The notes beneath the pieces were generated by a model, which did not search any database, was not told the DNA's origin, and was given only the letters and a program-made list of their open reading frames with translations. From the NCBI GenBank assembly GCA_001782475.1, contig MFOT01000008.1, positions 1 through 53,296 of the forward strand: a stretch of 53,296 nt of DNA, read 5' to 3'. The DNA comes from Candidatus Levybacteria bacterium RIFCSPLOWO2_01_FULL_38_21 (lineage in GTDB: Bacteria > Patescibacteriota > Microgenomatia > Levybacterales > UBA12049). The position numbers and the translations under genes are program-made. Below, piece after piece: positions 24,076 through 45,351 of the stretch (positions within the stretch are counted from its first letter, which is position 1; each line of letters starts with the position of its first letter).

Positions 24076-26366
24076 AACTTCCCCTTCTTCCGTTTCTTGA
24101 AAAAAAAGAGAGTAGGGAATATTTTTTAGCCCTAGTTCTTCGAAACGAAAAGGTAAATGCGGTATTCTTTGAAGAATCTTTGGGAAAAGTCAGTGTTTTG
24201 GGAAAACACAGCGAATATTTTGAAAATTCAATCGAGCAAGTCTCTTTAGAAGAGCTGTTAGGCATTTTGGATAAAGCAATTTCAACTGCCGAGCAGTCGC
24301 TTCCTGAAAATGTCGAGACAGTCAAAACAATCTTTGGAGTAAAAGGAAGCTGGGTTGAGGATAACAAAATAAAAAAAGATTATCTCTTAAAGCTTAAAAG
24401 GATAAGCGATGAGCTGGGACTTGTTCCGATAGGTTTTTTAGTTGCATTTGAAGCAATTGTACATCTTCTGCAAAAAGAGGAGGGCGCACCAGTCACTGCA
24501 ATTTTAGTCGAAACAGGAGAAAAATATGTTTCTGTAGCACATATTAAAGCAGGCAAAATTATAGAATCAAAAACATCGGAGATTATTGAGTCCCCCGCTC
24601 AAACAGTTGATAATCTTTTAAAACATTTTTCTTCTTCGGAGATTTTACCATCCAGAATTATTATTTTCAACGGCGATGAGGATGAAAGTCAGGAATTTAT
24701 AAATCACAGATGGAGTAAAAGTTTACCTTTTCTTCACCTTCCTCAGGCAACAACACTTCCTTTTGAATTTGACTCTGGAGCAGTTCTTTTTGGAGCGGCA
24801 CAACAGATGGGTTTTGAAGTTTTGGAAGATGGGATTTCGGAAATACCACCTGATAGCCTCGCGCTTGGCGGAGCTGGGAAAAAGGAAGAAATCCAAAAGA
24901 CGGAAGGAAAAAAAGAACTTGAAGATGAAGCAGTAACAGACAAGATTAAAAAAATTCCCGATGAAACTTCCGCAGAATACTTTGGTTTTGCAGAAGGTAA
25001 GGATATTTTAAAAGAACCTTTGCCAAAAGAGAAGATTCCGCAGGACATCGGACAAAAAGAGCTAAAGGAAAAAATTGAAGACCTGCCTGCCGGCAAGGCA
25101 GGAATACCGGAAGAACTTCCCCTTCCCTTAAACGCTCTAATGATTTTAGATGGATTAAAAAGTGTATCTGAAAAATTATTGAATATTCTAAAAAAACTTT
25201 CAACAGAAAAACTTGCCACGGGAATTCTAAGAGGTGGAAAAGGGATAATTATACCTGCGGTTTTAATTTTTTTAATTTTTATTCTTGCCATTGTCTATTT
25301 ATTTACAAATAAAGCTTCTGTTGTTTTAAATATTGATGGGAAAACAACAGATAAAACCCAAAATGTAACTTTTTCCCAAAAGCCTACAGATCCTCTAAAA
25401 AATATTATTCAGGGAGAATTTGTTTCTGTTTCCGAAGATGGAACTATCTCTACTCAATCAACTGGCAAAAAAGAAGTCGGTACAAATGCAAAAGGAACAG
25501 TAACTGTCTTTAATAATGCTCCCTCCTCTCAAACATTATCTAAGGAAACTACCATAACATCCTCAAACGGTCTTGATTTCACTTTGGACAAAAGCGTCAC
25601 TGTTTCTTCCGCATCGGGCGATATCTTTTCGGGTACCACACCTGGAAAAACAAGCGTTTCCGCAACTGCAAAACAAATTGGACAAGAATACAACCTCCCT
25701 TCTAATACGAAGTTTTCTATTTTGGGAAGTACTACAATGGCTGCAAAAAATGATAATCCTTTTTCCGGTGGAACAAAAAAAGAAATAACTGTTGTTTCAA
25801 AAGATGATATAGCAAAACTTCTCGAAGATCTTCCCAAAAACCTAGAACAAAAGGCGAAAGACGATCTTTCTAAGAAAGTCTCGGATGATAAGGTTTTGCT
25901 TCCTGTATTTATAAGTAGAACTATTAGTAAAAAAGATTTTGACAAAGATACAGGTGATGAAGCAAAACAAGTAACGCTTAAAGGGTCTGTTAATTTTGGA
26001 GGAATCGCTTATAAAAAAAGTGACAGTACTAGTTTTGCAAACGAGCTTTTGAAAACGAGTATCTCAGCCGATCTGACTGTTGATCCAAATAATATAAAAA
26101 TCAAGGTTAAAGATATAAAAGAAAATAAGAATAAAGAAGTAAATACAAATATAACCATAGTAGGAACTCTTGTTCCAAAGATTGATGAGGAAAAACTTTC
26201 AAAACAGATTTCCGGAAAGTCTTTTAAAAAAGCCGAAGAGATTCTAGAAAGACTTCCGCAGGTTTCTGGTGTAGATATTAATCTTTCTTTTAACATTCCG
26301 TTTTTCCCAAAGCGACTTCCCTTTTCGTCAAAAAATGTAAAAATTACAACTAAAATAAATGGGTAA
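24072..26366 (+). CDS. Bitopic membrane protein: actin-like (FtsA/PilM-type) N-terminal domain, charged linker, one TM, then an extracellular S/T/K-rich domain of about 350 aa
   Basis: The N-terminal block LGLVPIGFLVAFEAIVHLL..APVTAILVETGEKYVSVAHIKAGKI resembles the FtsA/PilM ATPase core. TM segment IIIPAVLIFLIFILAIVYLF. ATGA overlap with alaS and 8-nt overlap with the sortase gene. Confidence 0.45.
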   Translation: MKLPLLPFLEKKESREYFLALVLRNEKVNAVFFEESLGKVSVLGKHSEYFENSIEQVSLEELLGILDKAISTAEQSLPENVETVKTIFGVKGSWVEDNKIKKDYLLKLKRISDELGLVPIGFLVAFEAIVHLLQKEEGAPVTAILVETGEKYVSVAHIKAGKIIESKTSEIIESPAQTVDNLLKHFSSSEILPSRIIIFNGDEDESQEFINHRWSKSLPFLHLPQATTLPFEFDSGAVLFGAAQQMGFEVLEDGISEIPPDSLALGGAGKKEEIQKTEGKKELEDEAVTDKIKKIPDETSAEYFGFAEGKDILKEPLPKEKIPQDIGQKELKEKIEDLPAGKAGIPEELPLPLNALMILDGLKSVSEKLLNILKKLSTEKLATGILRGGKGIIIPAVLIFLIFILAIVYLFTNKASVVLNIDGKTTDKTQNVTFSQKPTDPLKNIIQGEFVSVSEDGTISTQSTGKKEVGTNAKGTVTVFNNAPSSQTLSKETTITSSNGLDFTLDKSVTVSSASGDIFSGTTPGKTSVSATAKQIGQEYNLPSNTKFSILGSTTMAAKNDNPFSGGTKKEITVVSKDDIAKLLEDLPKNLEQKAKDDLSKKVSDDKVLLPVFISRTISKKDFDKDTGDEAKQVTLKGSVNFGGIAYKKSDSTSFANELLKTSISADLTVDPNNIKIKVKDIKENKNKEVNTNITIVGTLVPKIDEEKLSKQISGKSFKKAEEILERLPQVSGVDINLSFNIPFFPKRLPFSSKNVKITTKING
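25082..25102. repeat. Family B palindrome (CCTGCCTGCCGGCAAGGCAGG), in-frame copy
   Basis: Encodes LPAGKAG in the linker of the 764-aa protein. Related to the exact copies at 29993 and 44778. Confidence 0.75.
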
Positions 26367-27090
26367 ATACTATTACAAAAAGGCGGATAAATTTTTTAGA
26401 AAAACGAGGTTACGCCTATTAAGCCTTTTAATTCTTTTTGTTGGGGTGGTCATTGTTTTATATATATTTTTTCCTCTGATTTCATGGCAGATTTATTTTG
26501 CACCAGCTCTTGCATCATCTAGCATACAGACTCCCATCCCAAAATCAATGGTTATTAATCCGTCTACTATTGGGAGCTTAATCTCTCAAGCAGAAAATTC
26601 ACTCTCGGGAGTCGATTATACAAACGCCAAAAACTGGTTTCCGGGATTTAATCCCGCTCATCCTAAACAGCCAAAAATTCCATCTTATACGATTTCGATT
26701 CCGAAGCTTAAAATTAACAATGCTACAGTGTCAACACGCGATAATAACCTGGCAATTCATCTTGTTAATTATCAAAATACCGCTATTCCGCCGGAGTCGG
26801 GAAATGCTGTAATTTTTGGACATTCAACCCTGCCCCAGCTTTTTAATCCAAACGATTATAAGACTATTTTTGCCACTGCATATCAGCTAAGGGCAGGAGA
26901 TGAAATATATGCAAATGTAAACGGCATTTCTGTCAGATATAGAGTTTTTAATATTAGTGTCGTTGAACCGACAAATATATCTATTTTTGAACAAGACTAC
27001 AGCAATTCATATCTAACGCTTGTTACCTGTACCCCTCCCGGAACAACCTGGAAAAGACTGATTATAAAAGCAAGGTTTGAGAAAATTTAA
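26359..27090 (+). CDS. Sortase-family transpeptidase
   Basis: N-terminal TM anchor, catalytic His (IFGHSTL), the TLVTC Cys motif, and a downstream Arg. Confidence 0.85.
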   Translation: MGKYYYKKADKFFRKTRLRLLSLLILFVGVVIVLYIFFPLISWQIYFAPALASSSIQTPIPKSMVINPSTIGSLISQAENSLSGVDYTNAKNWFPGFNPAHPKQPKIPSYTISIPKLKINNATVSTRDNNLAIHLVNYQNTAIPPESGNAVIFGHSTLPQLFNPNDYKTIFATAYQLRAGDEIYANVNGISVRYRVFNISVVEPTNISIFEQDYSNSYLTLVTCTPPGTTWKRLIIKARFEKI

Positions 27091-27352
27091 AAATGGAAGA
27101 AGAAAATAAGTTTAAAACTATTTTAACTAAAATTTGGCCAACGATCTATAGAATAATAAATTCATTTATCTACTTTATACTCTCTGTTATTAAATCTATA
27201 GTATCAATTGCTATAAATCAAATAAAAGGGGGAAAAGACATATAAGAAGGGGCATCTTTAAAAGCGAAGAGGAAAAGCTTCGAAAAGCACTTGAAGCAAT
27301 CCAAAAAAAACTTGTTGGTAAAACACTCACTTACAAGGAAATCTATGCTGTA

Positions 27353-28543
27353 ATGGATGAGATCGCAAGAAATAGACTTGGGGACGTTTTAACTACTTAT
27401 TTTGCTGCATCCGGATACTCTAAGGGGTTTACTAATAAAGAACTTTATTATCTAACCCGCGCTATGGTAGACACAGGAAAACATCTTAAATTTCCCGGAA
27501 TTGTTGCCGACAAACATTCAATTGGAGGAGTTCCGGGAACAAGAACGACCCTAATAGTTGTACCCATAGTAGCTGCTGCAGGGTTTACTATTCCAAAAAG
27601 CTCATCTCGGGCAATAACTACTCCCGATGGAACAGCTGACGATATGGAAGTACTAGCGCCCGTTGTGCTTCCCAAAGATAAAATTTATAAAATTGTGGAA
27701 AAGACGAACGGGTGTATTGTGTGGGGAGCAAGTTTCGGCATAGCCCCTGCAGATGATGTGATAATAAATGTAGAAAAGCCTCTTCTTTTTGAAAGCTATG
27801 ACAAAATCCTGGTTTCTATAATGGCAAAGAAGGTTGCTTTTTCCTCAAATCATGTTGTAATTGATCTTCCTTACGGAAAGATGGTAAAAGTTCATAGAAT
27901 AAAGGATGCAGAAATTCTAAAAGGGAAATTTGAATATCTTGCCCGAAAGTTTAAAATCCGAATAAAGGTTCTAATTCACAAAACAGATGAGCCGGCAGGA
28001 AGAGGAATTGGTCCAATCTTAGAAACTCGCGAGGCATTAAGAGTTCTCCAGCAAAAATCAAATAGACCACTAGATCTTGAGCAAAGGAGTCTTCATATTG
28101 CAACTGAACTCCTAAGGCTTTGCTTAAAAGATTCCGATAGGCAGCTTAAAGAAATTGTTAAGAAAAATTATGGAACCTGCGCCAATTGGGCAAAAAAAAT
28201 ACTAAAAAACGGCGGGGCCTTTTTAAAAATGCAGGAAATAATTAAAGAACAGGGCGGAAACCCAAACATAGATAGCGAGGATTTAAAACCGGGAAAGTTT
28301 TTATTTAGAATAAAATCTGTCAAGAACGGAGTTGCAAAAAGGATAAACAGTAGGAATCTTACAATAATCGGAAAACTTTTAGGCGCTCCAAATCAAAAAG
28401 GGTCAGGGATTTACCTAAACAAGAAAATTGGCGAAAAAGTTGCGAAAAATGATACAATCTGTACATTATACAGCGAAAGTATGTATAATCTTAAAAACGG
28501 AAAAAGTTCGAAAGAACGTTTTCCGATAATAACAGTAGCATGA
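27353..28543 (+). CDS. deoA: AMP phosphorylase / thymidine phosphorylase-family enzyme (archaeal DeoA-type); N-terminal boundary uncertain
   Basis: DKHSIGGVPGTRTTLIVVPIVAAAGFTIPKSSSRAITTPDGTAD and APADD blocks closely resemble archaeal AMP phosphorylase. Similarity appears to continue upstream of ATG 27353; an in-frame TTG lies at 27290. Confidence 0.8.
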   Translation: MDEIARNRLGDVLTTYFAASGYSKGFTNKELYYLTRAMVDTGKHLKFPGIVADKHSIGGVPGTRTTLIVVPIVAAAGFTIPKSSSRAITTPDGTADDMEVLAPVVLPKDKIYKIVEKTNGCIVWGASFGIAPADDVIINVEKPLLFESYDKILVSIMAKKVAFSSNHVVIDLPYGKMVKVHRIKDAEILKGKFEYLARKFKIRIKVLIHKTDEPAGRGIGPILETREALRVLQQKSNRPLDLEQRSLHIATELLRLCLKDSDRQLKEIVKKNYGTCANWAKKILKNGGAFLKMQEIIKEQGGNPNIDSEDLKPGKFLFRIKSVKNGVAKRINSRNLTIIGKLLGAPNQKGSGIYLNKKIGEKVAKNDTICTLYSESMYNLKNGKSSKERFPIITVA

Positions 28544-28565
28544 CCCTTCGGCAAGCTCAGGGTCA
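28541..28565. repeat. Family C element, intergenic hairpin TGACCCT-N11-AGGGTCA starting in the deoA stop codon
   Basis: 7-bp perfect stem read directly. Core CCCTTCGGCAAGCTCAGGG. Confidence 0.8.
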
Positions 28566-28584
28566 TACTGAGTAAAATCGAAGT

Positions 28585-29541
28585 ATGAAAAGGTTTATTA
28601 TTCTTTTAGCAGTATTGCTTTTGTTTGCCGGTGCGACTGTTCTCTGGTGGAAAAACGGAAGTCGGGCCCAAGATCCAGCAAATAAAAGCTCTCAAATTTT
28701 CGTAGTTGTAAAAGGTGAGGGTGTTAGGGAAATTGCGAATAGTCTTAAGACAAAAGGACTGATTAAAGATCCTATTGTTTTCTTTCTTCAAACAAAAAGA
28801 TTAGGACTTGATAAAGATTTGGAGGCAGGGGATTTTAGATTAAGTCCATCTATGAGCCTCTATACCATTATTCAGAATCTAACTCACGGAACTTTAGATA
28901 TATGGATTACAATTCCCGAGGGAATAAGGGCGGAGGAAATTGCAAATATTCTTAAAAAGGGTATTCCATCGTACAAACCGGATTGGAGAGAAACTCTTGC
29001 AACAAGGGAGGGTTATCTATTCCCCGATACTTACCTTATTCCAAGAGACGCCGATATAAATCTTGTAATGTCGCTTCTTAATAATAATTTCGGCAATAAA
29101 TACGATGGGGTCGATGCAGAAAAAACAGGACTTTCGCAAGAAGAGATAGTAACGATCGCATCATTGGTTGAGCGAGAAGCAAAGCTTGCGCAAGACCGCC
29201 CTTTGGTAGCAAGCGTGATACTTAACAGACTTGGTATAGGCATGAAGTTGGATATTGATGCAACAGTTCAGTACGCATTGGGATATCAAGAAAATGAAAA
29301 AACATGGTGGAAGAAAAATTTAACAAAAGATGATCTTAAAATTAACTCTCCTTACAATACTTATAGAAATGCCGATTTGCCCCCTTCGCCTATTTCAAAC
29401 CCGGGACTTTCTTCTATTATGGCCGTCGTAAATCCTTCAAAAACTAATTATCTTTACTATGTCTCTGATAAATCCGGCCACTTGCATTTTGCAACAACAC
29501 TTAAGGAACAAAACGTAAATATAGAAAAATATGGATTATAG
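28585..29541 (+). CDS. mltG: Endolytic murein transglycosylase MltG (YceG-like)
   Basis: 318 aa with an N-terminal TM and YceG-type blocks (EGYLFPDTY, ASLVEREA, NRL...LDIDATVQYAL, YNTY...LPP.PI.NPG). Confidence 0.9.
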   Translation: MKRFIILLAVLLLFAGATVLWWKNGSRAQDPANKSSQIFVVVKGEGVREIANSLKTKGLIKDPIVFFLQTKRLGLDKDLEAGDFRLSPSMSLYTIIQNLTHGTLDIWITIPEGIRAEEIANILKKGIPSYKPDWRETLATREGYLFPDTYLIPRDADINLVMSLLNNNFGNKYDGVDAEKTGLSQEEIVTIASLVEREAKLAQDRPLVASVILNRLGIGMKLDIDATVQYALGYQENEKTWWKKNLTKDDLKINSPYNTYRNADLPPSPISNPGLSSIMAVVNPSKTNYLYYVSDKSGHLHFATTLKEQNVNIEKYGL

Positions 29542-29560
29542 ATTCAAAAATATAAAGCGA

Positions 29561-29620
29561 GGAACAAATTTTTTCGCTGGACGTCAAGCGAATTGCGGGT
29601 CCGAGAAAAAATTTAGTTCC
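29561..29620. terminator. A/T-rich inverted repeat between convergent mltG and the ytxH-like gene (possible bidirectional terminator)
   Basis: GGAACAAATTTTTTC (29561-29575) pairs with GAAAAAATTTAGTTCC (29605-29620), with one bulge. Confidence 0.35.
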
Positions 29621-29635
29621 GAGCGAGTTTAATGG

Positions 29636-29965: not shown

Positions 29966-29966
29966 A

Positions 29967-30257
29967 TTATTCTCTTTCTTTTTTTGATTCCCGCCTGCCG
30001 GCAGGCATGGTTCTTTTTTTAAGAAGCTGGGCAATTGCCGCGCCAGTTTTAATTCCGGTTGCAAGACTTGAAAGACTGGAAATCGGCCCTGAGACGCTTT
30101 CTGTAATAACGCCAGTATCATCTAAAACTTTATTTGCTTTATCTACTGTTTTTCTAAGCTCTCTTAAAATAAAAAACACCTGAACACCTAAAGCTAAAAG
30201 AAGGATAGTCAAAACTATTATTACTAAAAATAAAGCTGTCTGGGCAGGATCTATCAT
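29967..30257 (-). CDS. DUF948-like membrane protein
   Basis: N-terminal TM followed by the ILRELRKTVDKANKVLDD helix. The pairing with a YtxH-like gene is common in Firmicutes. Confidence 0.55.
   Translation of the reverse strand: MIDPAQTALFLVIIVLTILLLALGVQVFFILRELRKTVDKANKVLDDTGVITESVSGPISSLSSLATGIKTGAAIAQLLKKRTMPAGRRESKKERE
29993..30008. repeat. Family B palindrome GCCTGCCGGCAGGC(AT), in-frame copy
   Basis: 16 nt identical to 44778-44793. Encodes MPAGR in the C-terminal tail of the DUF948-like protein. Confidence 0.85.
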
Positions 30258-30290
30258 GCTTAATTAAAGATAGCATTGAGAAAGTTCTGT

Positions 30291-30397: not shown

Positions 30398-30421
30398 CCG
30401 GATTAAATATAACAAACAATT

Positions 30422-31054: not shown

Positions 31055-31059
31055 TATCA

Positions 31060-34908: not shown

Positions 34909-36600
34909 TCACACTTCTATAACAACCGGCAATACCAAGGGGCGGCGGTGAAGATGTTTTAAAACTGATTTTTCCGCAATCTCTCCTATCTTTTTTCTTA
35001 TATACATCCAATCGCTTACTCGTCCTTTTTTTGTACTGAACCCGTCCTTAATGTCCTTTGCCAGTTTTTTGTTTGCAGTCCTTACTTCCTGATTGGATAA
35101 TCCCCGAGAAATTATGGTCGGATAATCAACTATTTGGCCGGTCTGCGAATCTATTTCGACAACTACAATTATTACTCCATCCTTTGAAATTTTTTGCCTG
35201 TCCCGAAGAATAAAACTTTCTATTTCTTCTCCAGAGATTTCATCAACAAATACATTTTTAACAGGTATTTTTCTACCTAGTACTGCCTCATCTTTTGAAA
35301 AAATAATTTCCTGTCCATCTTCAATTAAAAACATATCTTTATCCTCAAATCCCTGTCTTTTTGCCAAATTTTTATAAGCTACCATTTGTCTATATGTCCC
35401 TCCGATTGGAATCAATTTTTTGGGTCTGGTCAATTCCATAAGAAGCATTAAGTCATCGGCTGATCCGTGTCCAGAAACATGAAAATCATCTGTAATTTGC
35501 GAGTAAACAACTTTTGCCCCTTTTTTTGCAATACTATCTATTAATGAGTTTATTGATACTTCATTTCCCGGTATTGGATCTGCTGAGAAAACAATAACAT
35601 CTTTTGGGGAAATCGAAATTTCCCTATGCTCCCCATTTACAATTCGAGACAAGGCAGAATTCTCCTGCGCCTGACTGCCGGCAACAAGAAGCAAAAGCTG
35701 GGAGTCTTTATATTTTTTAATTTCATTGATATCAACTTCCATGCCTTTCTCAAGCTTCATATAGCCTAGTTTTTGAGCAATTGTTGATGTATTTATTAAA
35801 GATCTTCCGACAAAAACAACTTTTCTTTCAAGTTTTTGGGCGGCTTGTATTGCCTGGTTAAGTCTTGAGATATTAGAAGAATAAGTAGTTAATATAAATT
35901 TTCCTTCGCAGTTTCGCATCTGCGCTTCTATATTTTCCGCCAAGACTTGCTCTGATTTTGTAAACCCTTCTTTTTCTGCTCTAAGACAATCAGAGGCTAG
36001 ACAGAGAATTTCTTCATCTGCTGCTTTTGAAATTTTTAAAAAATCGGTTTTTTTACCATCAAAAGGGGTTAGATCAAACTTAAAGTCGCTTCCATGATAA
36101 AAATTCCCAACTGGAGTTTTTATAAAAATATGGCTACTGTCTGGAATTGAATGAGTAACTCTAATAAAAGAAATTGTAAAGCTACCAAGCTTTATTTCTC
36201 CATCTTCATAATTAACAGCTTTCACCCTAACAGGAATTCCAAATTCTTCTAACTTCTCATTGGCAAGTCCTGCTGTTAGGGGACCTGCAAAAATAGGAAA
36301 AGAAAAACCTGTCTTTTTTGCAAGCTGGGGAAGAATAAAAGGGAGAGCGCCTGTATGATCTTCATGTCCATGTGTTAAAGCCATCCCGACTATTTTTTTA
36401 TTTACCCCGCCAGAGGCGGGGTTTGTCAAGAGTAAATAGGAAATATCCGGGAGAAGCAGATCTACTCCAAGCATTGTTTCATCTGCGAAACCTAAACCGC
36501 AGTCAATAATAAGAACCTCATCTTTATATTCATATAAATACATGTTTCTTGTAACATCACCAATGCCTCCAAGTGGAATAAATGATACTTGATTTTTCAT
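34909..36600 (-). CDS. rnj: Ribonuclease J (metallo-beta-lactamase / beta-CASP)
   Basis: 563 aa with the THGHEDHTGALP motif, beta-CASP blocks, and a C-terminal domain. Confidence 0.9.
   Translation of the reverse strand: MKNQVSFIPLGGIGDVTRNMYLYEYKDEVLIIDCGLGFADETMLGVDLLLPDISYLLLTNPASGGVNKKIVGMALTHGHEDHTGALPFILPQLAKKTGFSFPIFAGPLTAGLANEKLEEFGIPVRVKAVNYEDGEIKLGSFTISFIRVTHSIPDSSHIFIKTPVGNFYHGSDFKFDLTPFDGKKTDFLKISKAADEEILCLASDCLRAEKEGFTKSEQVLAENIEAQMRNCEGKFILTTYSSNISRLNQAIQAAQKLERKVVFVGRSLINTSTIAQKLGYMKLEKGMEVDINEIKKYKDSQLLLLVAGSQAQENSALSRIVNGEHREISISPKDVIVFSADPIPGNEVSINSLIDSIAKKGAKVVYSQITDDFHVSGHGSADDLMLLMELTRPKKLIPIGGTYRQMVAYKNLAKRQGFEDKDMFLIEDGQEIIFSKDEAVLGRKIPVKNVFVDEISGEEIESFILRDRQKISKDGVIIVVVEIDSQTGQIVDYPTIISRGLSNQEVRTANKKLAKDIKDGFSTKKGRVSDWMYIRKKIGEIAEKSVLKHLHRRPLVLPVVIEV
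36404..36422. repeat. Family A hairpin ACCCCGCC-AGA-GGCGGGGT, in-frame copy inside rnj
   Basis: Perfect 8-bp stem. Encodes NPASGGV about 10 residues before the HGHEDH metal site. Confidence 0.8.
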
Positions 36601-36601
36601 T

Positions 36602-37690: not shown

Positions 37691-37750
37691 TTCGATTTCT
37701 TTTAAAACCAGACGTTATGTTTTACCCCAAACCCAAACCTATACTATTAG

Positions 37751-38409: not shown

Positions 38410-38443
38410 AATATCTAAAGTATATACACTGGATATATGGTTG

Positions 38444-40759
38444 TCAATAGCTGTCTTTTCTGAATCGGGGTCTTCGCGGAGGAAAGTTTCTTCGCTGTTT
38501 ACCCTCTTCAGCAGCTCTTTCTCTTTTAAATTGCCTTGATAAGGGATGTTCTTCCTGCGGCGGTCTTCTTTGGAAATCCCTGCTTTTCCTGAACTGTCCG
38601 GAGGGTAAGTGCTCAACTCCTGTCTTTGACTCTCCTTCTCTTTGTCTCTGTGACTCTTCCTCAAACTTCATCGAGAGATTTATTCTTCCCTGCTCATCAA
38701 TCTCTGTAACTCTTACTTTTACTTTTTGCCCGATTGTTACAACTTCGCTTGGATTTTTTACAAAACCCTGTCCCATTTGAGACACGTGAACCATTCCTTC
38801 TTTGCCGGGCAAAACTTCCACAAATGCTCCAAAAGGAAGAACTCTCTTAACAATTCCTTCAAAAATTTCTCCTGGCTTTACTTCCCGAGTTAATCCTTTT
38901 ACCCAATTGACTGCCTTTTGAACTGCCTCCTCAGTTGTTCCCGAAATTGCAACCGAACCGTCATCTTCAACATCAACAGTTGCTCCGGTTTGGGCAATAA
39001 TATTTTTTATCACTTTCCCACCCGGCCCAATAAGTTCTCCAATTTTCTCAACGGGAATATGAACCAACTCAATCTTTGGAGCATATTTTGAAACTTCCTG
39101 TCTTGATTTTGATAAAACACCGAGCATTTTATCTAAAATAGATAGCCTGGCTGTTTTTGCTTTCTCGAATACCTCTTTTATCTGAGATATTGTAATTCCT
39201 GGAACTTTAACATCGAGTTGCATTGCCGTTATCCCTTTTTCTGTTCCTGCCACCTTAAAATCCATGTCTCCAGAGAAATCCTCAAGTCCTAGGATATCGG
39301 TTAAAATTACATATTTTTCATCATCTGACATCATTCCCATTGCAATTCCTGCAACAGAACTATCTATTGGAACTCCTGCATCCATTAAAGCAAGCGTTGA
39401 TCCGCAAGTTGCTGCCATCGAAGTTGAACCGTTAGAAGATAAAACTTCGGATACTACCCTTATTGTGTAGGGAAAGGTGTCTTGTTTTGGTATGACGCAA
39501 AGGAGAGCTCGCTCGGCAAGTGCGCCGTGTCCGATCTCGCGCCTTGAAGGAAAACCCATTCTTCCTGTTTCTCCAATTGAGTAAGGAGGCATAGAATAAT
39601 GGTGCATATATCTTTTTGTTTCCTCTCCCTCTGCTGTTTCAACCAATTGCTCAAGCTTGGGAGAGCCAAGGGTGATAACAGTTAGAACTTGCGTATCTCC
39701 TCTTTGAAAAATTGCAGATCCGTGAGTTCTGGGAAGTACTGAAACTTGAGAAGAAATCTCTCGTATTTCATCTGCTTCTCTTCCATCTAGTCTTTTGCCT
39801 TTCTTTAAAATCTCATCTCTTATTATTTTATAAAGGACAGTTTCTATTCCTCTTGCAATAATTTTTTTATCCAAAGTTGATTCGGGATCAGAAACTTTTT
39901 CTCCCTCAAAGACCATATTTGCTAAATCCTCTGTCTCTGTTTCTGTGGACTCTTTGTTCAATCTTGTCTTTATAAGATTTGTTATTTCTTCTTTGTAGGA
40001 TTTTTCAAGTTTTTTAATAATTTCGAAAAGCTCTGGATCTTTTGAAACAACCTCTTTTTTTCTTTCTACTTGCTTAGCTAATTTTTCGATTAGAGAAATT
40101 ATTTTTTTGTTTTCTTCGTGAGCCTTCTCTATTGCCTCTAAAACTAACTCCTCCGGCATTTGTATTGCTTCTGCCTCAAGCATTACTGTTTTGTCTTTTG
40201 TCTGAGCGGCAACAATATCAAGTTCGGAAAATTCGGTTTCGGCAGCTCCTGGATTTATTATATATTCCTTATTGCCATCATCTTTTTCCTTAACAAATCC
40301 TATTCTTACAGCTGCAACCGGACCATTCCATGGAACAGGAGAAATTGAAAGTGCTGCAGATGTTGCAATAATAGAAAGAATGTCCGGTTCGTTCTCTCCA
40401 TCTACCGAAAGAACTGTTACAACTATCTGAACTTCTTTTTTAAATTCTTTTGGGAATAACGGTCTTATACAGCGGTCTATAAGTCGTGCGGTTAAAATTG
40501 CATCATCGCTTGGCCTTCCCTCTCTTTTCACCCAACGGCTCCCTTTTATTCTTCCTCCTGCATAAAGTCTTTCTATATACTCAACTGTTAAGGGAAGGTA
40601 ATCTATGTCTTCTCTTTCTTTTCCAACAACTAAGGTTACCAAAACCATAGTATCTCCAAGTCTTGCTAAGATTGACGATGTTGCTTGTTGGGCAAGTTCT
40701 CCTGCTTCAAGCGTGAGGGTCTTATCCTCCAGTTTTAAGTGGACTTGAGTTTTTTTCAT
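38444..40759 (-). CDS. pnp: Polyribonucleotide nucleotidyltransferase (PNPase) with an Arg-rich C-terminal tail
   Basis: 771 aa with two RNase PH domains, KH (GPGGKVIKNI) and S1 (GEIFEGIVKRVLPFGAFVE), then a basic tail of about 70 aa. Confidence 0.95.
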   Translation of the reverse strand: MKKTQVHLKLEDKTLTLEAGELAQQATSSILARLGDTMVLVTLVVGKEREDIDYLPLTVEYIERLYAGGRIKGSRWVKREGRPSDDAILTARLIDRCIRPLFPKEFKKEVQIVVTVLSVDGENEPDILSIIATSAALSISPVPWNGPVAAVRIGFVKEKDDGNKEYIINPGAAETEFSELDIVAAQTKDKTVMLEAEAIQMPEELVLEAIEKAHEENKKIISLIEKLAKQVERKKEVVSKDPELFEIIKKLEKSYKEEITNLIKTRLNKESTETETEDLANMVFEGEKVSDPESTLDKKIIARGIETVLYKIIRDEILKKGKRLDGREADEIREISSQVSVLPRTHGSAIFQRGDTQVLTVITLGSPKLEQLVETAEGEETKRYMHHYSMPPYSIGETGRMGFPSRREIGHGALAERALLCVIPKQDTFPYTIRVVSEVLSSNGSTSMAATCGSTLALMDAGVPIDSSVAGIAMGMMSDDEKYVILTDILGLEDFSGDMDFKVAGTEKGITAMQLDVKVPGITISQIKEVFEKAKTARLSILDKMLGVLSKSRQEVSKYAPKIELVHIPVEKIGELIGPGGKVIKNIIAQTGATVDVEDDGSVAISGTTEEAVQKAVNWVKGLTREVKPGEIFEGIVKRVLPFGAFVEVLPGKEGMVHVSQMGQGFVKNPSEVVTIGQKVKVRVTEIDEQGRINLSMKFEEESQRQREGESKTGVEHLPSGQFRKSRDFQRRPPQEEHPLSRQFKRERAAEEGKQRRNFPPRRPRFRKDSY

Positions 40760-41029
40760 TTATTCTTTAAGGCTGAGATTTTTTAAAATTGCGGAGTAAC
40801 GGTTTTTATCTACATTTTTTAAAAAATTAGCAAGCCTTCTTCTTTTTGCAATCATAGACAAAAGACCGCGCCTTGAATGGGTATCGTGAATATGCTGTTT
40901 TAGATGGCCGGTTAATTTAGTAATTCTATTTGTTAAAAGAGCAATCTGAACCTCGGGACTTCCAGTATCTCCCGAAGTAGTCTGGAATTTTTTTATAATC
41001 TCCTGTTTTTGCGTTGATGTTAGCGACAT
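40760..41029 (-). CDS. rpsO: 30S ribosomal protein S15
   Basis: 89 aa with GDTGSPEVQIALLT..I..L..HLK.H.HD.HSRRGL, typical S15. Confidence 0.95.
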   Translation of the reverse strand: MSLTSTQKQEIIKKFQTTSGDTGSPEVQIALLTNRITKLTGHLKQHIHDTHSRRGLLSMIAKRRRLANFLKNVDKNRYSAILKNLSLKE

Positions 41030-41037
41030 AGTTAATA

Positions 41038-41046
41038 ATTATACCA
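41038..41046 (-). promoter_or_regulatory. Extended -10 (TGGTATAAT) promoter of rpsO
   Basis: Minus strand reads TGG-TATAAT, then 8 nt to the rpsO ATG. Confidence 0.5.
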
Positions 41047-41086
41047 ATTTTTAACTCGCCCCTCAATGGGGAAATTTAATTTTAGA

Positions 41087-41107
41087 ATTAGGGATCAAAC
41101 CCCTAAT
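41087..41107. repeat. Hairpin ATTAGGG-ATCAAAC-CCCTAAT (family D, copy 2)
   Basis: 7-bp perfect stem. Lies between the methyltransferase stop and the rpsO promoter. Confidence 0.75.
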
Positions 41108-41197
41108 AAAGACTTTTAAACTAATAGCTCTGACTGAAGTAAATAATCTGGATAAGTAAAACTATACGAAAAGCTCAAGAAGCTATTGTTAATTATT

Positions 41198-42124
41198 TTA
41201 TTGTGTCAGAATTGATTGAGAAAAGAGGGAAGATAATCCCATCTTAAATTCCTCAATTCTCTTTTCAGCAATCTCACAATATTTTTTATCAATATCGTAA
41301 CCGATGTACTTTCTATTAGTTTTCAATGCGGCTATACAAGTAGTTCCACTCCCTAAAAATGGGTCGAGAACAACATCATTCTCAAATGTATAAAGCTGGA
41401 TTAACCGATAGGCAAGTTCAACGGGAAAAGGAGCAGGATGCTTAACCCTTGAAGCTCTTTCTGCGGAGAATGTCCAAATACTTTTTGTAAACTCCATAAA
41501 CTCTTCTTTCGAGATAGTTGATTTCTTATCTGATTTTTTTCGATCATATCTACCTTTCGAGAATACGAGAATATATTCATGGATGTCTCTTAGAGTAGGG
41601 TTACTTGCAGACAGCCAACTACCCCAAGCAAAAGACTGACTTGCGCTTGACGCTTTATTCCAGATAATCTCTCCTCTCATTAAGAAGCCTAATTTATCCA
41701 TTTCTTCAATAACGTAAGAGTGCAGAGGCAGATACGGTTTTCGTCCTAGATTGGCAACATTTATACATGCACGACCGCCTGGTACGAGAACTCGGTAAGT
41801 TTCTTTGAAAACATTATAGAGTAATTTTCTATACTCTTCTAAAGTCAAATCATTATCATACTCTTTACCAACGTTATATGGAGGAGATGTAACCATCAAA
41901 TGAACACTGTTATCTGATAGCTCAGACATCTTTTCACTACTTTTACAGAAAACTCTATTTATATTTTCTCTTAGGATAGAATTTTCAACAAACTCAGGAA
42001 TGTTTTTTTGACCATTTCCAGAATAAAGCTTGCTATTGTAGAACTTTGAGGAGTCGTGATTAACTCTCCCTGGAGAACCGAAGGCACTTGTTTTAGTTCC
42101 GTTATTTTTATTGTAGCGGTTCAT
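41198..42124 (-). CDS. DNA methyltransferase, N4/N6 class (beta-type motif order)
   Basis: Catalytic SPPY motif (MVTSPPYNVGKEY) precedes the AdoMet motif DPFLGSGTT. Start set to MNRYNK, which is preceded by GGAGGA. Confidence 0.85.
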   Translation of the reverse strand: MNRYNKNNGTKTSAFGSPGRVNHDSSKFYNSKLYSGNGQKNIPEFVENSILRENINRVFCKSSEKMSELSDNSVHLMVTSPPYNVGKEYDNDLTLEEYRKLLYNVFKETYRVLVPGGRACINVANLGRKPYLPLHSYVIEEMDKLGFLMRGEIIWNKASSASQSFAWGSWLSASNPTLRDIHEYILVFSKGRYDRKKSDKKSTISKEEFMEFTKSIWTFSAERASRVKHPAPFPVELAYRLIQLYTFENDVVLDPFLGSGTTCIAALKTNRKYIGYDIDKKYCEIAEKRIEEFKMGLSSLFSQSILTQ

Positions 42125-42125
42125 T

Positions 42126-42758
42126 TTAATCCTCCATCCAAAGATCAACCCATCTTTTATAAGAACTCGTATTTGTTTCTACTCTATTCCATTGTACTAA
42201 AATACTCTTGACATTTCTATCGTTAATAAGAAGCGACAGAGCTTCTTTTGTTATCTCAACTCCTCGAGGATTTGTGCCAGCTTTAGGAAGTTTTATGTAG
42301 CTGTTTTTCCTAAGCTTCTTAAAATATTTAACTTGAACTTCCAAGGGTATATAATATAAGCCACCTATACCATTCCAGTTAACTTGAACTAGTAACATGT
42401 CGCAGCTGGGATAATATTTTTCTAAAAATTCTTTTGCTTTTTGAGCGTCGACTGTCCAAATGAGTTTTATACCACCGAGATTTTTTCCAGAAATTGTTTT
42501 GATAGAAATCGGTTGATTAAATAATTTCAAGTCCGTTTCTGGTTTAGTTATAGGAATATTAGTATCGACGTTTTGCTCTCCAAATTTATAAATTAGTAAT
42601 GCAACTAGAATTCTCTCGCGAACTGATCCTATTTCCATTCCAATTTTTCCTGCCCGAGAAGCCTCTAATTCAGCAAGTTGGAAAAGGTAAGGCAAGCGCT
42701 TCTTAATTTTGTTAACAAGCTCATTATCTTTAAAAATTTCTATTAATTGACTGCTCAT
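42126..42758 (-). CDS. Putative type II restriction endonuclease partner
   Basis: 210-aa ORF whose stop lies 1 nt before the methyltransferase ATG. No family recognised with certainty; called from context only. Confidence 0.45.
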   Translation of the reverse strand: MSSQLIEIFKDNELVNKIKKRLPYLFQLAELEASRAGKIGMEIGSVRERILVALLIYKFGEQNVDTNIPITKPETDLKLFNQPISIKTISGKNLGGIKLIWTVDAQKAKEFLEKYYPSCDMLLVQVNWNGIGGLYYIPLEVQVKYFKKLRKNSYIKLPKAGTNPRGVEITKEALSLLINDRNVKSILVQWNRVETNTSSYKRWVDLWMED

Positions 42759-42765
42759 TAAGAAG

Positions 42766-42794
42766 AGTATAGCGTTTAAGGAGGTTTCAATCAA
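42766..42794 (-). promoter_or_regulatory. Promoter of the R-M pair
   Basis: Minus strand reads TTGATT (42794-42789), 17 nt spacer, TATACT (42771-42766), then 7 nt to the ATG at 42758. Confidence 0.5.
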
Positions 42795-42825
42795 CAATTA
42801 CTTATTGTTTATAATATATGTGCCT

Positions 42826-43779
42826 TTAAATATTCGTTGAGCCTTTGTAAATTTTTGGGGCGAGCCAGTCAACCGGTGGATTTTTTCCTTGCTCGCCTCG
42901 CTGCGAAGCGGGCCCCGCGGAGCTTTGGCGGAGTGGGGCCTGCCCCGGCCGAACCTGGTCTCTTTTACCGATCCTTTGCTGGGGAATATTTTTGGGAGAA
43001 AAGACTGATGCTTCCTCATCTCCCCTTATTTGAGCTTTTGTAAACCTCTTATCGCTTCTTACTGCTCCTTTTTTCATAAGTTCTCCTGCCATTTCAAAAG
43101 CTAAAGGACTTGTCCTTGTGTTCTGGAAATTGTCAGTTGCGCTTTCTATTCCAATTAATAAATTTTGTGCAGTATCAATATCCATTGGTAAATCAAGCGA
43201 CAAAATCAAATCGCCCATTCGCTCGGAAATTGAAGAACTATTTGGAGAAACAAGAGCAATATCTCCAAATCCCTGATTATCTGATTTATTGTCTATATTA
43301 ATTACAACTGTATCTTTTAAAGCCTGGGGGTCAAAAATTCTATCCAAATCGGAAAGTCTCGGAGTTCCGACAACAAATAAAAGTCCCGGATACCCCTGCG
43401 ATCTTTTAAAAATAACATCATCCTCGGAAAAACTTAAACCCTCGTCCCCTCCTTTTACAACAATATTCAAAAAACCATCCTCAAGAGTATAAGAAATTTT
43501 TTCTATTTCTCCCTCTCTATATGGAAAAGAGACAATCATATCTCCTGCTCCGCCCTCAAAACTTGATTTTACTTTATCTATTCCAACAAGATGAGAATGC
43601 TCAACCAAAGCTTCTGTTGGACAAACTATTGACACATCTTTTCCGGAAGATAGACAAGAGAGATAAAGGGATAGAGCCGCACCCATTTCATCAACTGCGG
43701 GATTTTTGCCAACGGCAATTCCAATTTTGCTGTTTTTTCCAATAAAATCTTTTATTTGATCTAAAACTCTGTTATCCAT
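42826..43779 (-). CDS. DHH-family (NrnA-like) domain protein with degenerate catalytic motifs and a low-complexity GC-rich tail
   Basis: NrnA-like layout, but motif I reads GKNPAVDEMGAAL, motif II VVGTP and motif III IDNK (instead of DHH). No GGGH/DHHA1 block was seen. The last 80 aa or so are P/Q/R/G-rich. Confidence 0.6.
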   Translation of the reverse strand: MDNRVLDQIKDFIGKNSKIGIAVGKNPAVDEMGAALSLYLSCLSSGKDVSIVCPTEALVEHSHLVGIDKVKSSFEGGAGDMIVSFPYREGEIEKISYTLEDGFLNIVVKGGDEGLSFSEDDVIFKRSQGYPGLLFVVGTPRLSDLDRIFDPQALKDTVVINIDNKSDNQGFGDIALVSPNSSSISERMGDLILSLDLPMDIDTAQNLLIGIESATDNFQNTRTSPLAFEMAGELMKKGAVRSDKRFTKAQIRGDEEASVFSPKNIPQQRIGKRDQVRPGQAPLRQSSAGPASQRGEQGKNPPVDWLAPKIYKGSTNI

Positions 43780-43790
43780 AGGGGAATTTT

Positions 43791-43815
43791 ATCCAGCACC
43801 AAATTGGTGCTGGAT
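43791..43815. terminator. Perfect 12-bp-arm palindrome ATCCAGCACCAA-A-TTGGTGCTGGAT directly after the infB stop
   Basis: Direct reading. No U-tract follows on the mRNA strand, so it may be an intercistronic stabiliser or processing hairpin rather than a terminator. Confidence 0.4.
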
Positions 43816-45351
43816 TTATCCATGAGATATTATCACATCTCCTATAGTAAAGTCAAGGAAAGGTGAAATGATTATACCAGCTTCATTGCCCTTTTCTACT
43901 TTTGAGATGGGATTTTTACCTTGCCTTAAAGATGAAATTACACTCTCTCCAATTACCTCATCTTTTCTAACAAGCCTTATCTTATCTCCCTTAGCCATTC
44001 TTCCCTCAAGTACCGCAACTCCCATAACTTTTGTTTTTTCAAATGGAAACTGCGCAACTACTTTTGCTTTCCCTAAATTTTCTTCAACAAGAGAAAGTTC
44101 TCTACCCTCTAAAACATCTGTTATTTCATCGATCAGTTCATAAATAAGATTGTAATTTTTAACAACCACTTCCTCTGTCTTTGCAAGTTTTATGATTTCC
44201 GGCTTAATTTTTATATTAAATCCAAGAACAATTGCACCGACTCCCTTTGCAAGCAAAAGATCTGCGGGCGAGATATCTCCTGTTTTGTAAGATACAATAT
44301 TTATCTGATTTGGCAAGGCATTTATTATTGCCTCTAAGGAACCTAAAGTATCCGCGCAAATTATTAATGAGAGAATTGGTAGGTTTTCAGAAAAAGGGGT
44401 GACACGACTGGAAGGGCTCCCGACAGCGCGCATCTCCGATGTAATCGGAGGAGCACTGACGGGAGGGAAAGTCGGGGCAGGACCCCGTTGATTCAAAACA
44501 CGAAATTTTTTCAAAACTATACTTCCGACTTTAGGAACTTTTTCAAAGCCCAAAATTTCAACTGCTTCGCCTATTGTTACCTTGTCTACTTTTTTTCCCG
44601 AAGCATCAGTAAGACTTTTCACTTTTCCAAAGACTCCATTGCTTGATATCTCATCTCTTAAAGATAATGTCCCGCTTTTAATGACAACTGAGGATAGCGG
44701 CCCTGATCTTTGATCTTGCTTTGATTCAATAACCACACCCTTAAATTCTCCGCTTTCGGAAGAAATAAATTTTTCCTGCCTGCCGGCAGGCATAGCTTTT
44801 TTTATCTCAAAAACTAGAAGAATAAGATCCAAAAGTTCTTTAATATTTGTATTTGTTTTTGCGGATACTTCTACTACCGGCACATCGCCGCCGTATCCTT
44901 CAAGAAGAACTTCTGCTTTTAAAAGCTCTCGTTTTGCTTTTTCGGGATTTTTTTCGGCAAGATCAGATTTTGTCAAAACAACAATAAAAGGGATATCAAC
45001 CTCTTTTAATAATTTTATACTTTCTCTAGTCTGCGGCATTACTCCGTCAACAGATGAAACAACCAAAAGCCCGATATCTGCCGCCATAATTCCTTTTCCT
45101 CTCATATTAGAGAATAGTTCATGCCCGGGTGTATCTATAAAAGTGATAGCCTTTTTCTCGCCTTCATTTATAAATTCTATTTTTGATGCGCCAATTCTTT
45201 GAGTAATTCCCCCATATTCTTTTTGTGCAACATTTGATTTGCGGATTGTATCCAAAAGGGCAGTCTTTCCGTGGTCTACGTGGCCTACTACGGCAACAAC
45301 CGGGGGGTAGAATTTTTTATTTGGCGGATTTGGTTTTTGTTTTTTTGCCAT
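43816..45351 (-). CDS. infB: Translation initiation factor IF-2, short form
   Basis: 511 aa that starts almost directly with the G domain ([24 protein letters not shown]). Carries two in-frame GC-rich insertions. Confidence 0.95.
44417..44465. repeat. 49-nt nested imperfect palindrome inside infB
   Basis: Inner stem CTCCGAT-GTA-ATCGGAG (44434-44450). Outer arms CTCCCGACAG / CTGACGGGAG match 9 of 10. Embedded in a GC-rich stretch coding [25 protein letters not shown]. Confidence 0.65.
44778..44793. repeat. Family B palindrome GCCTGCCGGCAGGC(AT), in-frame copy inside infB
   Basis: 16 nt identical to 29993-30008. Encodes MPAGR. Confidence 0.85.

Follow-up and report, generated by a model that had tools for sequence, protein, structure and literature searches.

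REPs and REPINs are GC-rich palindromes of about 20–40 nt that are scattered in genomes and associated with the RAYT (TnpA-REP) transposase. Their presumed mode of spread is as single-stranded hairpins, moved with the help of a single associated enzyme gene. The GC clusters, or palindromic mini-elements, of fungal mitochondria are organellar, lineage-specific, and 30–50 bp long (cf. PMC7218506), and palindromic elements have reportedly been described in Rickettsia (RPE; Ogata et al., in 2000). The Ssn enzymes, of the cd10448 clade, are hairpin-directed single-stranded DNA (ssDNA) nucleases that cleave sequence-specifically next to the hairpin, and each such gene has copies of its repeat on its flanks (Chenal et al. 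2025, PMC11893778). The Ssn-related motifs (SRMs) are represented by NTS/dRS3 in Neisseria, and the characterised Ssn targets have a conserved, one-sided, non-palindromic CGTCAT extension, which gives both repeat and cut their orientation (PMC11893778). SegB of phage T4 is a free-standing GIY-YIG homing endonuclease located in a tRNA gene cluster (PMC2330249).

The window analysed here is the whole 53,296-nt stretch of DNA from the uncultured Candidatus Levybacteria bacterium RIFCSPLOWO2_01_FULL_38_21 (GCA_001782475.1, MFOT01000008.1). The original prediction, that a 16-nt string is shared by a 96-aa gene and infB, was confirmed: ATGCCTGCCGGCAGGC (as a 16-mer, GCCTGCCGGCAGGCAT) matched exactly at 29993–30008 and 44778–44793, and the near copy claimed for the opposite-strand 764-aa gene was present at 25082–25102. 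With up to one mismatch, CCTGCCGGCAGG was found three times in the window (at 25086, 29994, and 44779), against approximately 0.02 sites expected by chance, and none of 100 dinucleotide shuffles of the window reached three or more, in agreement with the claim that such a repeat is unlikely by chance. Because repeated 16-mers are themselves common in the window (35, nearly all AT-rich, with only two families at 75% GC), the palindrome repeat is distinctive by its composition and palindromy. Its self-complementarity was as predicted, whereas its length, given as 12–14 nt, was not: the sites (S1, S2, and S3) are each a 21-nt derivative of one perfect 20-nt palindrome, here called PAL (CCTGCCTGCCGGCAGGCAGG), and the extra base in each copy keeps the reading frame. 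The features are as follows.

24072..26366, plus strand: 764-aa membrane protein, host of S3 (translation; weak Pfam hits)
25082..25102, plus strand: S3, PAL-derived 21-nt insert in the 764-aa membrane protein (fuzzy PAL match with one inserted base)
29967..30257, minus strand: 96-aa protein with an N-terminal transmembrane helix, host of S1 (translation; no Pfam family)
29990..30010, minus strand: S1, PAL-derived 21-nt insert in the C-terminal tail of the 96-aa membrane protein (DNA alignment with L007 and L005)
43816..45351, minus strand: infB, encoding IF-2 of 511 aa, host of S2 (Pfam families; PDB matches to IF-2, E = 7e-88)
44775..44795, minus strand: S2, PAL-derived 21-nt insert in infB (empty site in L203, orthologue alignments)

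Both exact copies are read in the same frame in minus-strand genes, as TMPAGRRE in the 96-aa protein and AMPAGRQE in IF-2, and the third is read as DLPAGKAG in the plus-strand 764-aa gene. The predicted PAGR reading therefore holds at the window sites but is not the only one, in that PAL encodes LPAGRQ, CLPAGR, or PACRQA depending on the frame. Each window site is a presence/absence polymorphism of seven codons, and this filled/empty polymorphism at all three sites supports the earlier proposal of a DNA-level mobile or recombinogenic hairpin that is tolerated in ORFs; mobilisation itself is what we infer.

In infB, the minus-strand sequence of S2 is CtaTGCCTGCCGGCAGGCAGG, encoding (A)MPAGRQ, with a 1-nt ambiguity in its boundary (44775–44795 or 44776–44796). 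That it represents an insertion is borne out by locus L203, which has the exact empty site (ATA AAA AAA/GAA AAA TTT), compared with the filled site of the window (ATA AAA AAA (GCT ATG CCT GCC GGC AGG CAG) GAA AAA TTT). Neither the insert nor PAGR was found in any of about 145 other IF-2 orthologues (25 orthologous loci and 119 other cluster representatives), and the insert was missing from 119 of 120 IF-2 cluster representatives. According to the alignment with Thermus thermophilus IF-2 (PDB 3J4J), S2 lies in the linker from the G domain to domain II. Identical IF-2 sequences including the insert were present on nine contigs from ENA and JGI samples, with four places among the matches listed, and S2 is restricted to the window's own lineage.

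The minus-strand sequence of S1 is CCaTGCCTGCCGGCAGGCgGG, encoding (T)MPAGRR, and shares with S2 the extra A that gives ATG, so that both belong to the same +A subvariant. In the DNA alignment, locus L007 was empty, with exactly those 21 nt missing, and locus L005 had a decayed copy (CCACACCATCTGGTAGGAGAG), whereas the window copy is near-intact. S1 is the older insertion: the L005 lineage has it too, in a form that has drifted towards AT by decay. The "DUF948-like" label previously given to the 96-aa protein found no confirmation in Pfam; its gene lies upstream of a YtxH-like gene, whose own Pfam similarity is weak. S3 (CCTGCCTGCCGGCAaGGCAGG) encodes (D)LPAGKAG, and homologues with 70–75% identity to its host were either filled, with DLPAGKAGIPEEL (P0242, P0243, and P0245; decayed in P0246), or empty, reading EEI-------PEEL (P0244 and P0247–P0253). 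The 764-aa protein showed only sub-threshold Baseplate_J-like hits in Pfam, and some sources name it "baseplate J/gp47 family".

PAL is a perfect 20-mer that folds into an 8-bp stem with a CCGG loop, with a hairpin energy of −8 kcal/mol as ssDNA, and all six of its reading frames are free of stop codons. In each of 12 independent filled/empty pairs, the filled site differed by a precise 20-bp insertion and the target was not duplicated, which shows that PAL enters as a discrete 20-bp unit and that target bases are neither duplicated nor lost. Among 160 PAL copies, there was no target-site duplication of fixed length and no consensus within 8 nt on each side; the sole flank signal was a depletion of T at −1 and of A at +1. 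A ThaI-type restriction–modification system lies near the element; it recognises CGCG, which is absent from the element.

The motif is not unique to the three window sites, and PAL spread is not limited to Levybacteria. Within other Levybacteria, the RNase J gene carried PAL in L018 (as the perfect 20-mer) and in L022, had a decayed copy in L015, and was free of it in L006, L007, L009, and L012; PAL was also present in the ClpC gene of L006. All the copies in L006, L018, and L022 are inside ORFs, as are all three window copies, and the roughly 450 kb of Levybacteria DNA examined contained about 6 PAL-like copies. Beyond these, the motif occurred on hundreds of environmental contigs: a metagenome scan recovered PAL at at least 120 loci, in at least 127 copies, on contigs with a GC content of 29–71%, and in viral contigs 42 of 55 inner-16-mer sites extended to the same perfect 20-mer, for which the chance is 1 in 256. 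The 20-mer is the same in environmental bacteria and phages of great diversity, and besides genes it is found in non-coding DNA and tRNA fragments. Records of plasmids and phages of cultured hosts, 9.6 Gb in total, yielded no perfect PAL.

The recurrent neighbour among the clustered ORFs around PAL was a GIY-YIG protein (Pfam GIY-YIG domain, E = 1e-16), not a Y1 transposase. A GIY-YIG ORF lay 18–70 nt from PAL at L079, L126, L132, L155, L176, and L181, and PAL occurred within 200 nt of a nuclease gene in 8 cases versus 2.8 expected, a number reached in 5 of 2000 permutations. In 11 independent cassettes, a tRNA 5′ fragment containing PAL was located just upstream of the gene for an 80–90 aa single-domain GIY-YIG nuclease, with PAL on the upstream side only, not both. 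The 5′ part of the tRNA is duplicated in these cassettes, the intact tRNA is restored downstream, and the duplicated segment is split by PAL into pieces of 10–22 nt. When we considered the five homologue groups closest to the PAL-linked nuclease (P0155, P0121, P0156, P0132, and P0159), every locus retrieved through them had PAL (at L328, a one-mismatch variant) 18–60 nt upstream, in a tRNA 5′ fragment; more distant GIY-YIG subfamilies had their own, different inverted repeat. The PAL-linked nucleases of the cassettes are mutually only 34–55% identical, and their profile matched the product of a Shinella GIY-YIG gene flanked by SRM hairpins (hhalign probability 98.1%, 35% identity). Outside the window, PAL is tightly linked to genes for single-domain GIY-YIG nucleases of 80–90 aa, which are homologues of the Ssn enzymes. 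Searches with hmmsearch and tblastn identified no GIY-YIG gene, either in the window itself or across the 439 kb that it makes up together with related Levybacteria loci, and the partner enzyme is therefore putative for this organism.

Like the Ssn/SRM systems, PAL is a dispersed, short, hairpin-forming repeat (SRM range, 20–50 nt) present in several copies and, in the environmental cassettes, physically linked to the gene for a single-domain GIY-YIG protein of ~90 aa, the nucleases linked to it have an SRM-flanked homologue in that family, and different nuclease clades have different repeats. Unlike them, PAL is a perfect, spacer-free 20-mer that lacks the CGTCAT extension in 160 copies, is identical across phyla rather than lineage-specific, lies upstream of the gene only, inside a duplicated tRNA 5′ fragment, and has seemingly few copies per genome; moreover, whereas 2% of NTS are intragenic, PAL is found in frame within essential genes. 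With REPs and REPINs it shares a GC-rich palindrome and insertion without target duplication, although REPs are extragenic, imperfect, and species-specific, carry a GTAG or CGTC tag, and depend on a HUH/Y1 transposase, whereas PAL is perfect, has no such tag in its flanks, occurs inside ORFs, and is linked to a GIY-YIG nuclease. MITEs are defined by terminal inverted repeats and target-site duplication at 50–500 bp, whereas PAL is 20 bp long, with no duplication in the 12 pairs. In common with fungal mitochondrial GC clusters, short GC-rich palindromes have invaded an AT-rich genome and, at times, coding regions. As with the RPE, a palindromic repeat has been inserted in frame into ORFs at all three window sites, but RPEs and the Coxiella MITEs (PMC5896051), insertions of which add surface peptide segments, are 5–7 times longer (about 100–150 bp), confined to one genus, and without a linked nuclease, whereas the 21-nt inserts of the Levybacteria genome add seven residues only. 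The PAL cassettes resemble SegB in having a small GIY-YIG gene beside or within tRNA genes, although SegB is larger, has a DNA-binding domain, cuts double-stranded DNA, and has no dispersed palindrome. A highly iterated palindrome or DNA uptake sequence (about 1 per kb, produced by substitution bias rather than by insertion) was rejected, the window having 3 PAL-derived copies per 53 kb that are insertions relative to orthologues, as was an intrinsic terminator, in that a hairpin followed by a T-run occurs only antisense to infB and the small gene and a T-run accompanies 19% of environmental copies.

Taken as a whole, S1–S3 are probably dispersed, frame-compatible copies of PAL as a REP/SRM-like mini-element, presumably mobilised as a single-stranded hairpin. 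The PAL hairpin in ssDNA would be recognised, and cut at its base, by an Ssn-like nuclease whose gene lies somewhere else in the genome or in the community, and the freed hairpin would be re-joined into single-stranded gaps elsewhere, which would explain the sharp 20-nt boundaries and the lack of duplication. S2 may have been copied from an existing 21-nt copy inside the genome, and later selection would leave only frame-preserving copies, in tolerant loops. Counting against this mechanism are the negative GIY-YIG searches of the 439 kb, the low copy density, unlike that of the expanded REP or NTS families, the missing CGTCAT extension, the upstream-only position in the cassettes, and the identity of PAL across phyla while the associated proteins diverge to 34–55% identity. 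Moreover, GIY-YIG nucleases act on DNA by hydrolysis and are not known to carry out strand transfer, which means that a ligase would be required for re-insertion, and the window copies, as 21-nt variants, may be immobile relics. A bolder version, which we consider possible but doubtful, is that no mobile DNA smaller than PAL has so far been observed, PAL being a bare 20-nt hairpin cut from ssDNA by an Ssn-like GIY-YIG nuclease and re-ligated elsewhere in a hydrolytic "cut-and-ligate" route distinct from HUH/DDE transposition, unchanged across bacterial phyla and phages, and able to lengthen essential proteins such as IF-2, RNase J, ClpC, and P-type ATPases by seven residues.

It is unlikely, in our estimation, that no dedicated enzyme is involved and that PAL is a self-maintaining palindrome, spread or homogenised by template switching at hairpins, short-patch gene conversion, or recombination of environmental DNA, with the GIY-YIG adjacency secondary. 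The 16-nt identity and shared +A subvariant of S1 and S2 are as expected if resident copies copy each other, the near-intact S1 beside its decayed L005 orthologue fits periodic refreshing, and the nuclease gene was not found in the 439 kb of Levybacteria sequence; in the cassettes, PAL next to the nuclease might itself be selected, because it breaks up direct tRNA repeats through which the nuclease gene would otherwise be deleted, as seen in the 10–22 nt pieces. However, this leaves unaccounted for one exact, sharp-ended 20-mer over contigs of 29–71% GC and its presence in 11 of 11 independent cassettes with such divergent nucleases, and the distinct inverted repeats of distant GIY-YIG subfamilies are the pattern expected from enzyme–repeat co-evolution.

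A hairpin useful to the host appears more improbable still, whether as a DNA tag for single-strand "restriction" in natural transformation (as for NTS and SsnA in Neisseria), a stop to antisense transcription through infB and the small gene, or a means of slowing translation at domain boundaries. NTS repeats do modulate transformation with SsnA (PMC11893778), S1 and S2 score as terminator-like on the plus strand, antisense to the genes, with a hairpin and then a T-run, and the window palindrome is better kept than its L005 orthologue; but the T-runs are lysine codons of the host genes, a run of this kind accompanies only 32 of 168 environmental PAL copies, sister lineages thrive without the inserts, and copies have decayed towards AT in L005, L015, and P0246. 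Protein-level similarity through a selected P-A-G-R peptide, chance, or an assembly or library artefact is scarcely credible. Although every copy is in frame and encodes small or flexible residues, and 16-mer repeats are common in the window, this reading was already ruled out by the orthologue alignments and independent assemblies: both peptide and codons are missing from orthologues, the same DNA occurs in different frames, in non-coding DNA, and in tRNA fragments, the number of sites far exceeds the 0.02 expected, the nine ENA/JGI contigs carry the identical IF-2, and diverged, decaying copies are known.

If the mini-element reading is true, it joins two subjects so far studied separately, the newly described Ssn hairpin-directed ssDNA nucleases and the old question of what lets palindromic repeats as short as these spread, for which PAL is a clean test case, with exact 20-bp boundaries, no target duplication, and identity across phyla. 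Empty orthologous sites allow its in-frame entry into an essential gene to be dated, the tRNA-fragment/PAL/GIY-YIG cassette is a recognisable annotation marker, and a nuclease specific for PAL would make a candidate ssDNA tool, its predicted site being 20 nt long and symmetric. PAL-type elements can also make small indels in the conserved proteins of genome-reduced CPR bacteria. In the window genome, intragenic PAL occurs as 21-nt frame-keeping variants only, one lying in the tail of a protein, one in a linker between domains, and one in a low-complexity spacer.

The 16-mer GCCTGCCGGCAGGCAT occurs exactly at positions 29993–30008 and 44778–44793 of the window, which has a GC content of 37.6%. 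The original prediction held that exact repetition of a perfect GC-rich 14-nt palindrome in this AT-rich window is very unlikely to be due to chance, and the counts agree: with up to one mismatch, the 12-mer core was found at three sites, against 0.02 expected, and three or more sites were reached in none of 100 shuffles. These shuffles rule out a chance origin, although plain 16-mer repeats are frequent in the window. Nearly all of its 35 repeated 16-mers are AT-rich, and only two families have 75% GC. Because repeated 16-mers are common here, the signal lies in composition together with palindromy, not in repetition alone. The sole other GC-rich exact 16-mer repeat is CAAAGCTCCGCGGGGC (minus strand, 5076–5091 and 42912–42927), which encodes QSSAG at both places: in a variable loop of an EF-G-like gene (3184–5331) and in a low-complexity stretch of a 317-aa protein that has no Pfam match (42826–43779). 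It includes the quasi-palindrome GCTCCGCGGGGC, with CCGCGG and CGCG inside.

Fuzzy searches of the window and 34 related loci identified the perfect 20-nt palindrome CCTGCCTGCCGGCAGGCAGG (hereafter PAL) as the parent of all copies. Each copy in the window is 21 nt long and consists of PAL plus one base:

25082–25102, plus strand: S3, CCTGCCTGCCGGCAaGGCAGG, in the gene for a 764-aa protein
29990–30010, minus strand: S1, CCaTGCCTGCCGGCAGGCgGG, in the gene for a 96-aa membrane protein
44775–44795, minus strand: S2, CtaTGCCTGCCGGCAGGCAGG, in infB (IF-2)

The exact copies, S1 and S2, are read in the same frame, and the extra A common to both creates a Met codon. The 96-aa protein ends in …KKRTMPAGRRESKKERE followed by the stop codon; it has no family in Pfam or NCBIfam, and its earlier label as "DUF948-like" was not confirmed. 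The context of the third copy is …EDLPAGKAGIPEE…. PAL contains no stop codon in any of the six frames and reads LPAGRQ, CLPAGR, or PACRQA. As single-stranded DNA, it is predicted to fold into an 8-bp stem with a CCGG loop (−8 kcal/mol).

At the level of the host genes, the proposed insertion into infB was upheld by the alignment of IF-2 orthologues. The seven codons of S2 were missing in all 25 orthologous loci and, among 120 cluster representatives (56–97% identity), occurred only in the window's own cluster. At the DNA level, the empty site in the related locus L203 reads …ATA AAA AAA/GAA AAA TTT…, and the filled site in the window reads …ATA AAA AAA [GCT ATG CCT GCC GGC AGG CAG] GAA AAA TTT…. 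An alignment to Thermus thermophilus IF-2 (3J4J) places the insert in the linker that connects the G domain to domain II. ENA and JGI samples yielded nine contigs that encode the identical insert-bearing IF-2, so S2 is not an assembly artefact; the existence of decayed copies likewise rules out an artefact. For the 96-aa protein, exactly the 21 nt of S1 are missing in L007, and L005 carries a copy at the same place with eight substitutions, six of which are GC to AT. This decayed copy indicates that S1 is older than S2. The homologues of the 764-aa protein (70–75% identity) fall into a filled group at S3 (DLPAGKAGIPEEL, with the decayed version LSAGKAGVPEEL in the homologue P0246) and an empty group (EEI-------PEEL). 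The copies that persist inside genes of this window are 21 nt long and occupy a protein tail (S1), an inter-domain linker (S2), and a low-complexity spacer (S3), and the orthologue alignments exclude a conserved peptide. Two more distant homologues of the 764-aa protein (P0254 and P0262, 56–59% identity) read DLPARLDSAKRAGQAGIP and DLPARL-AAKRAGEAGIP at the S3 site; they carry a "DLPARLDSAKRAGQAG" insert, in which the PAL halves are seemingly about seven codons apart, and which may represent either a nested insertion or a longer element related to PAL.

The motif is not restricted to the three sites of the window, as it also occurs in RNase J and ClpC of other Levybacteria and in viral and metagenome contigs. 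In RNase J, the perfect 20-mer is present in L018, a variant in L022, and a decayed version in L015, and PAL is absent in L006, L007, L009, and L012; the ClpC of L006 also hosts PAL. A second GC-rich hairpin family, ACCCCGCC-n3/n4-GGCGGGGT, was observed at 9097–9115, 36404–36422, and 50211–50229 of the window. It is in frame in the C-terminal tail of an rpoC-like gene (DPANGGV) and in RNase J (NPASGGV), and the third copy lies directly past a stop codon. In RNase J it forms a 21-nt insert at the exact PAL site of L018 and L022; L006 and L007 lack this insert, and L005 has a decayed version of it. The form ACCCCGCC-n3-GGCGGGGT was rejected as a PAL-like mobile unit, since it is a hairpin of the terminator type that is common in viral contigs (82 hits).

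To see how PAL sits in DNA, 14 nt from either side of every copy were joined, and the resulting string was sought elsewhere. This yielded 12 independent filled/empty pairs (L043, L063/L074, L079, L126, L128, L130, L132, L142, L143, L155, L208, and L327), each differing by exactly the 20-bp PAL, with no target bases duplicated and none lost. PAL inserts as a discrete unit of 20 bp, duplicates no target sequence, and is gained and decays at orthologous sites. The empty and filled sites in the host genes sustain the original reading of a DNA-level hairpin inside ORFs and allow it to be sharpened. Neither a fixed target-site duplication nor a target motif was found, and the flanks have no consensus beyond an under-representation of T at −1 and A at +1. 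One-nucleotide identity between the flanks is in slight excess (52 vs. 30), and direct 7-mers common to both flanks number 30, against 12.8 ± 3.7 at random positions of the same contigs, because PAL is frequently located among short tandem repeats. Only 19% of the copies have an adjacent T-run. PAL often lies within simple repeats of 7–8 nt or in the middle of another hairpin (empty copy at L142:4951). Local clusters or tandem pairs 9–13 nt apart were seen in L047, L142, L176, and L181, including four copies in 1.5 kb of AT-rich non-coding DNA (L142, 987–2469).

When viral contigs were searched with the inner 16-mer, 55 sites were found. Of these, 42 extend to the same perfect 20-mer, for which chance would give 1 in 256, and 11 others match PAL on one side. 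The 20-mer scan of metagenomes found at least 120 loci with at least 127 copies. Among the matches listed, the contigs have 29–71% GC (median 43%) and include groundwater from Rifle and Hainich. Records from cultured hosts (7.3 Gb of plasmids and 2.3 Gb of phage genomes) contained no perfect PAL, and a literature search with the PAL sequence and its peptides returned nothing relevant. In two high-GC phage-like contigs, PAL lies in the variable loop of tRNA-Met (L041, 8616–8635; L067, 2284–2303). ARAGORN called the L067 gene as a 92-nt tRNA and none in L041; the former tRNA may be functional, with PAL as an extra arm.

When the ORFs neighbouring PAL copies were clustered, one protein of 80–90 aa recurred; it has a GIY-YIG catalytic domain (E = 1e-16) and no specific family name in Pfam or NCBIfam. 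Its genes are part of a cassette of constant architecture (L079, L126, L132, L155, L176, and L181):

Element 1: 5′ fragment of a tRNA gene, with perfect PAL (one copy or two) located within or next to the D-arm
Element 2: gap of about 20–70 nt
Element 3: GIY-YIG ORF, its 3′ end overlapping the next element
Element 4: the same tRNA, complete and free of PAL

PAL lay within 200 nt of the nuclease gene in eight cases, against 2.8 expected, and only 5 of 2,000 permutations reached eight. As an independent test, loci were fetched via homologues of the PAL-linked proteins, and the same cassette was found in all five of the closest homologue groups (P0155, P0121, P0156, P0132, and P0159). The P0156 group includes a MAG protein named Azambacteria by one source, the P0132 group a Margulisbacteria MAG, and the P0159 group a PAL copy one base off (L328). 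The cassette tRNAs are Lys, Asn, Ser, Arg, Leu, and Val. The distant GIY-YIG subfamilies P0140, P0226, P0138, P0196, and P0142 had no PAL and were bounded by a different inverted repeat, ACCCCGTTAGATAA…TTATCTAACGGGGT; ACCCCGTTAGATAA was not above chance in the window. A GIY-YIG profile scan of the viral contigs recovered only one already known contig. Other small GIY-YIG subfamilies (L218–L244, L330, L331, and L333) lie between the inverted repeats cACCCCGTTAGATAA … TTATCTAACGGGGTg in IS-like units of about 300 bp, some of which split a Bro-N-type gene (including in the cultured Niabella drilacis), and others of which are inside a type I R-M operon or beside a group II intron reverse transcriptase.

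Chenal et al. 2025 (PMC11893778) described the Ssn family: GIY-YIG proteins of a single domain (about 94 aa) whose binding to a hairpin repeat (SRM, 20–50 nt; NTS/dRS3 in Neisseria) is confined to single-stranded DNA, which they cut next to the repeat. The cognate repeat usually flanks the gene, giving an IS-like arrangement. That paper does not mention tRNA genes or CPR bacteria. A Shinella GIY-YIG gene with CGTCATCCTCGGGCTTGACCCGAGGATCC on both sides matched the profile of the PAL-linked proteins (98.1% probability). Given this homology to a repeat-flanked, SRM-type enzyme, PAL appears to be the cognate repeat of an Ssn-like clade. Unlike described SRMs, PAL is perfectly palindromic and lacks the CGTCAT extension that gives them an orientation, is identical across phyla, and occurs inside a duplicated tRNA fragment. 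Whereas only 2% of NTS are intragenic, PAL sits in frame within genes, and in colonizing genes in frame it resembles the Rickettsia palindromic elements (RPE). PAL is best read as a palindromic repeat of the REP/SRM type, tied to a small nuclease; outside this window it is tightly linked to Ssn-like nuclease genes.

In the mechanism that we propose, the nuclease would recognize the symmetric PAL hairpin in single-stranded DNA and cut at its base, and the released or copied hairpin would then be joined into single-stranded gaps elsewhere. The gene infB would have received a 21-nt, already frame-compatible copy from within the genome, because a 20-nt insertion followed by a +1 correction would imply a lethal intermediate. 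Against this mechanism, neither the window nor 439 kb of related loci yielded a GIY-YIG nuclease gene, the density of PAL copies is low, and, to our knowledge, GIY-YIG chemistry does not include strand transfer. Peptide-level selection, chance, and artefact are excluded. A rival explanation is that general recombination or template switching spreads PAL without a dedicated enzyme. Alternatively, PAL may be retained for a host function, either DNA tagging for the control of transformation, as in Neisseria, or antisense termination, for which the terminator-like scores of S1 and S2 on the antisense strand speak.

A ThaI-family restriction endonuclease and an N4/N6 DNA methyltransferase are encoded at 41198–42797, between rpsO/pnp and infB. 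The specificity of the endonuclease is presumably CGCG, and since PAL does not contain CGCG, the neighbouring system was rejected as relevant to PAL. The same gene order was also found in the near-identical contigs L001–L003.
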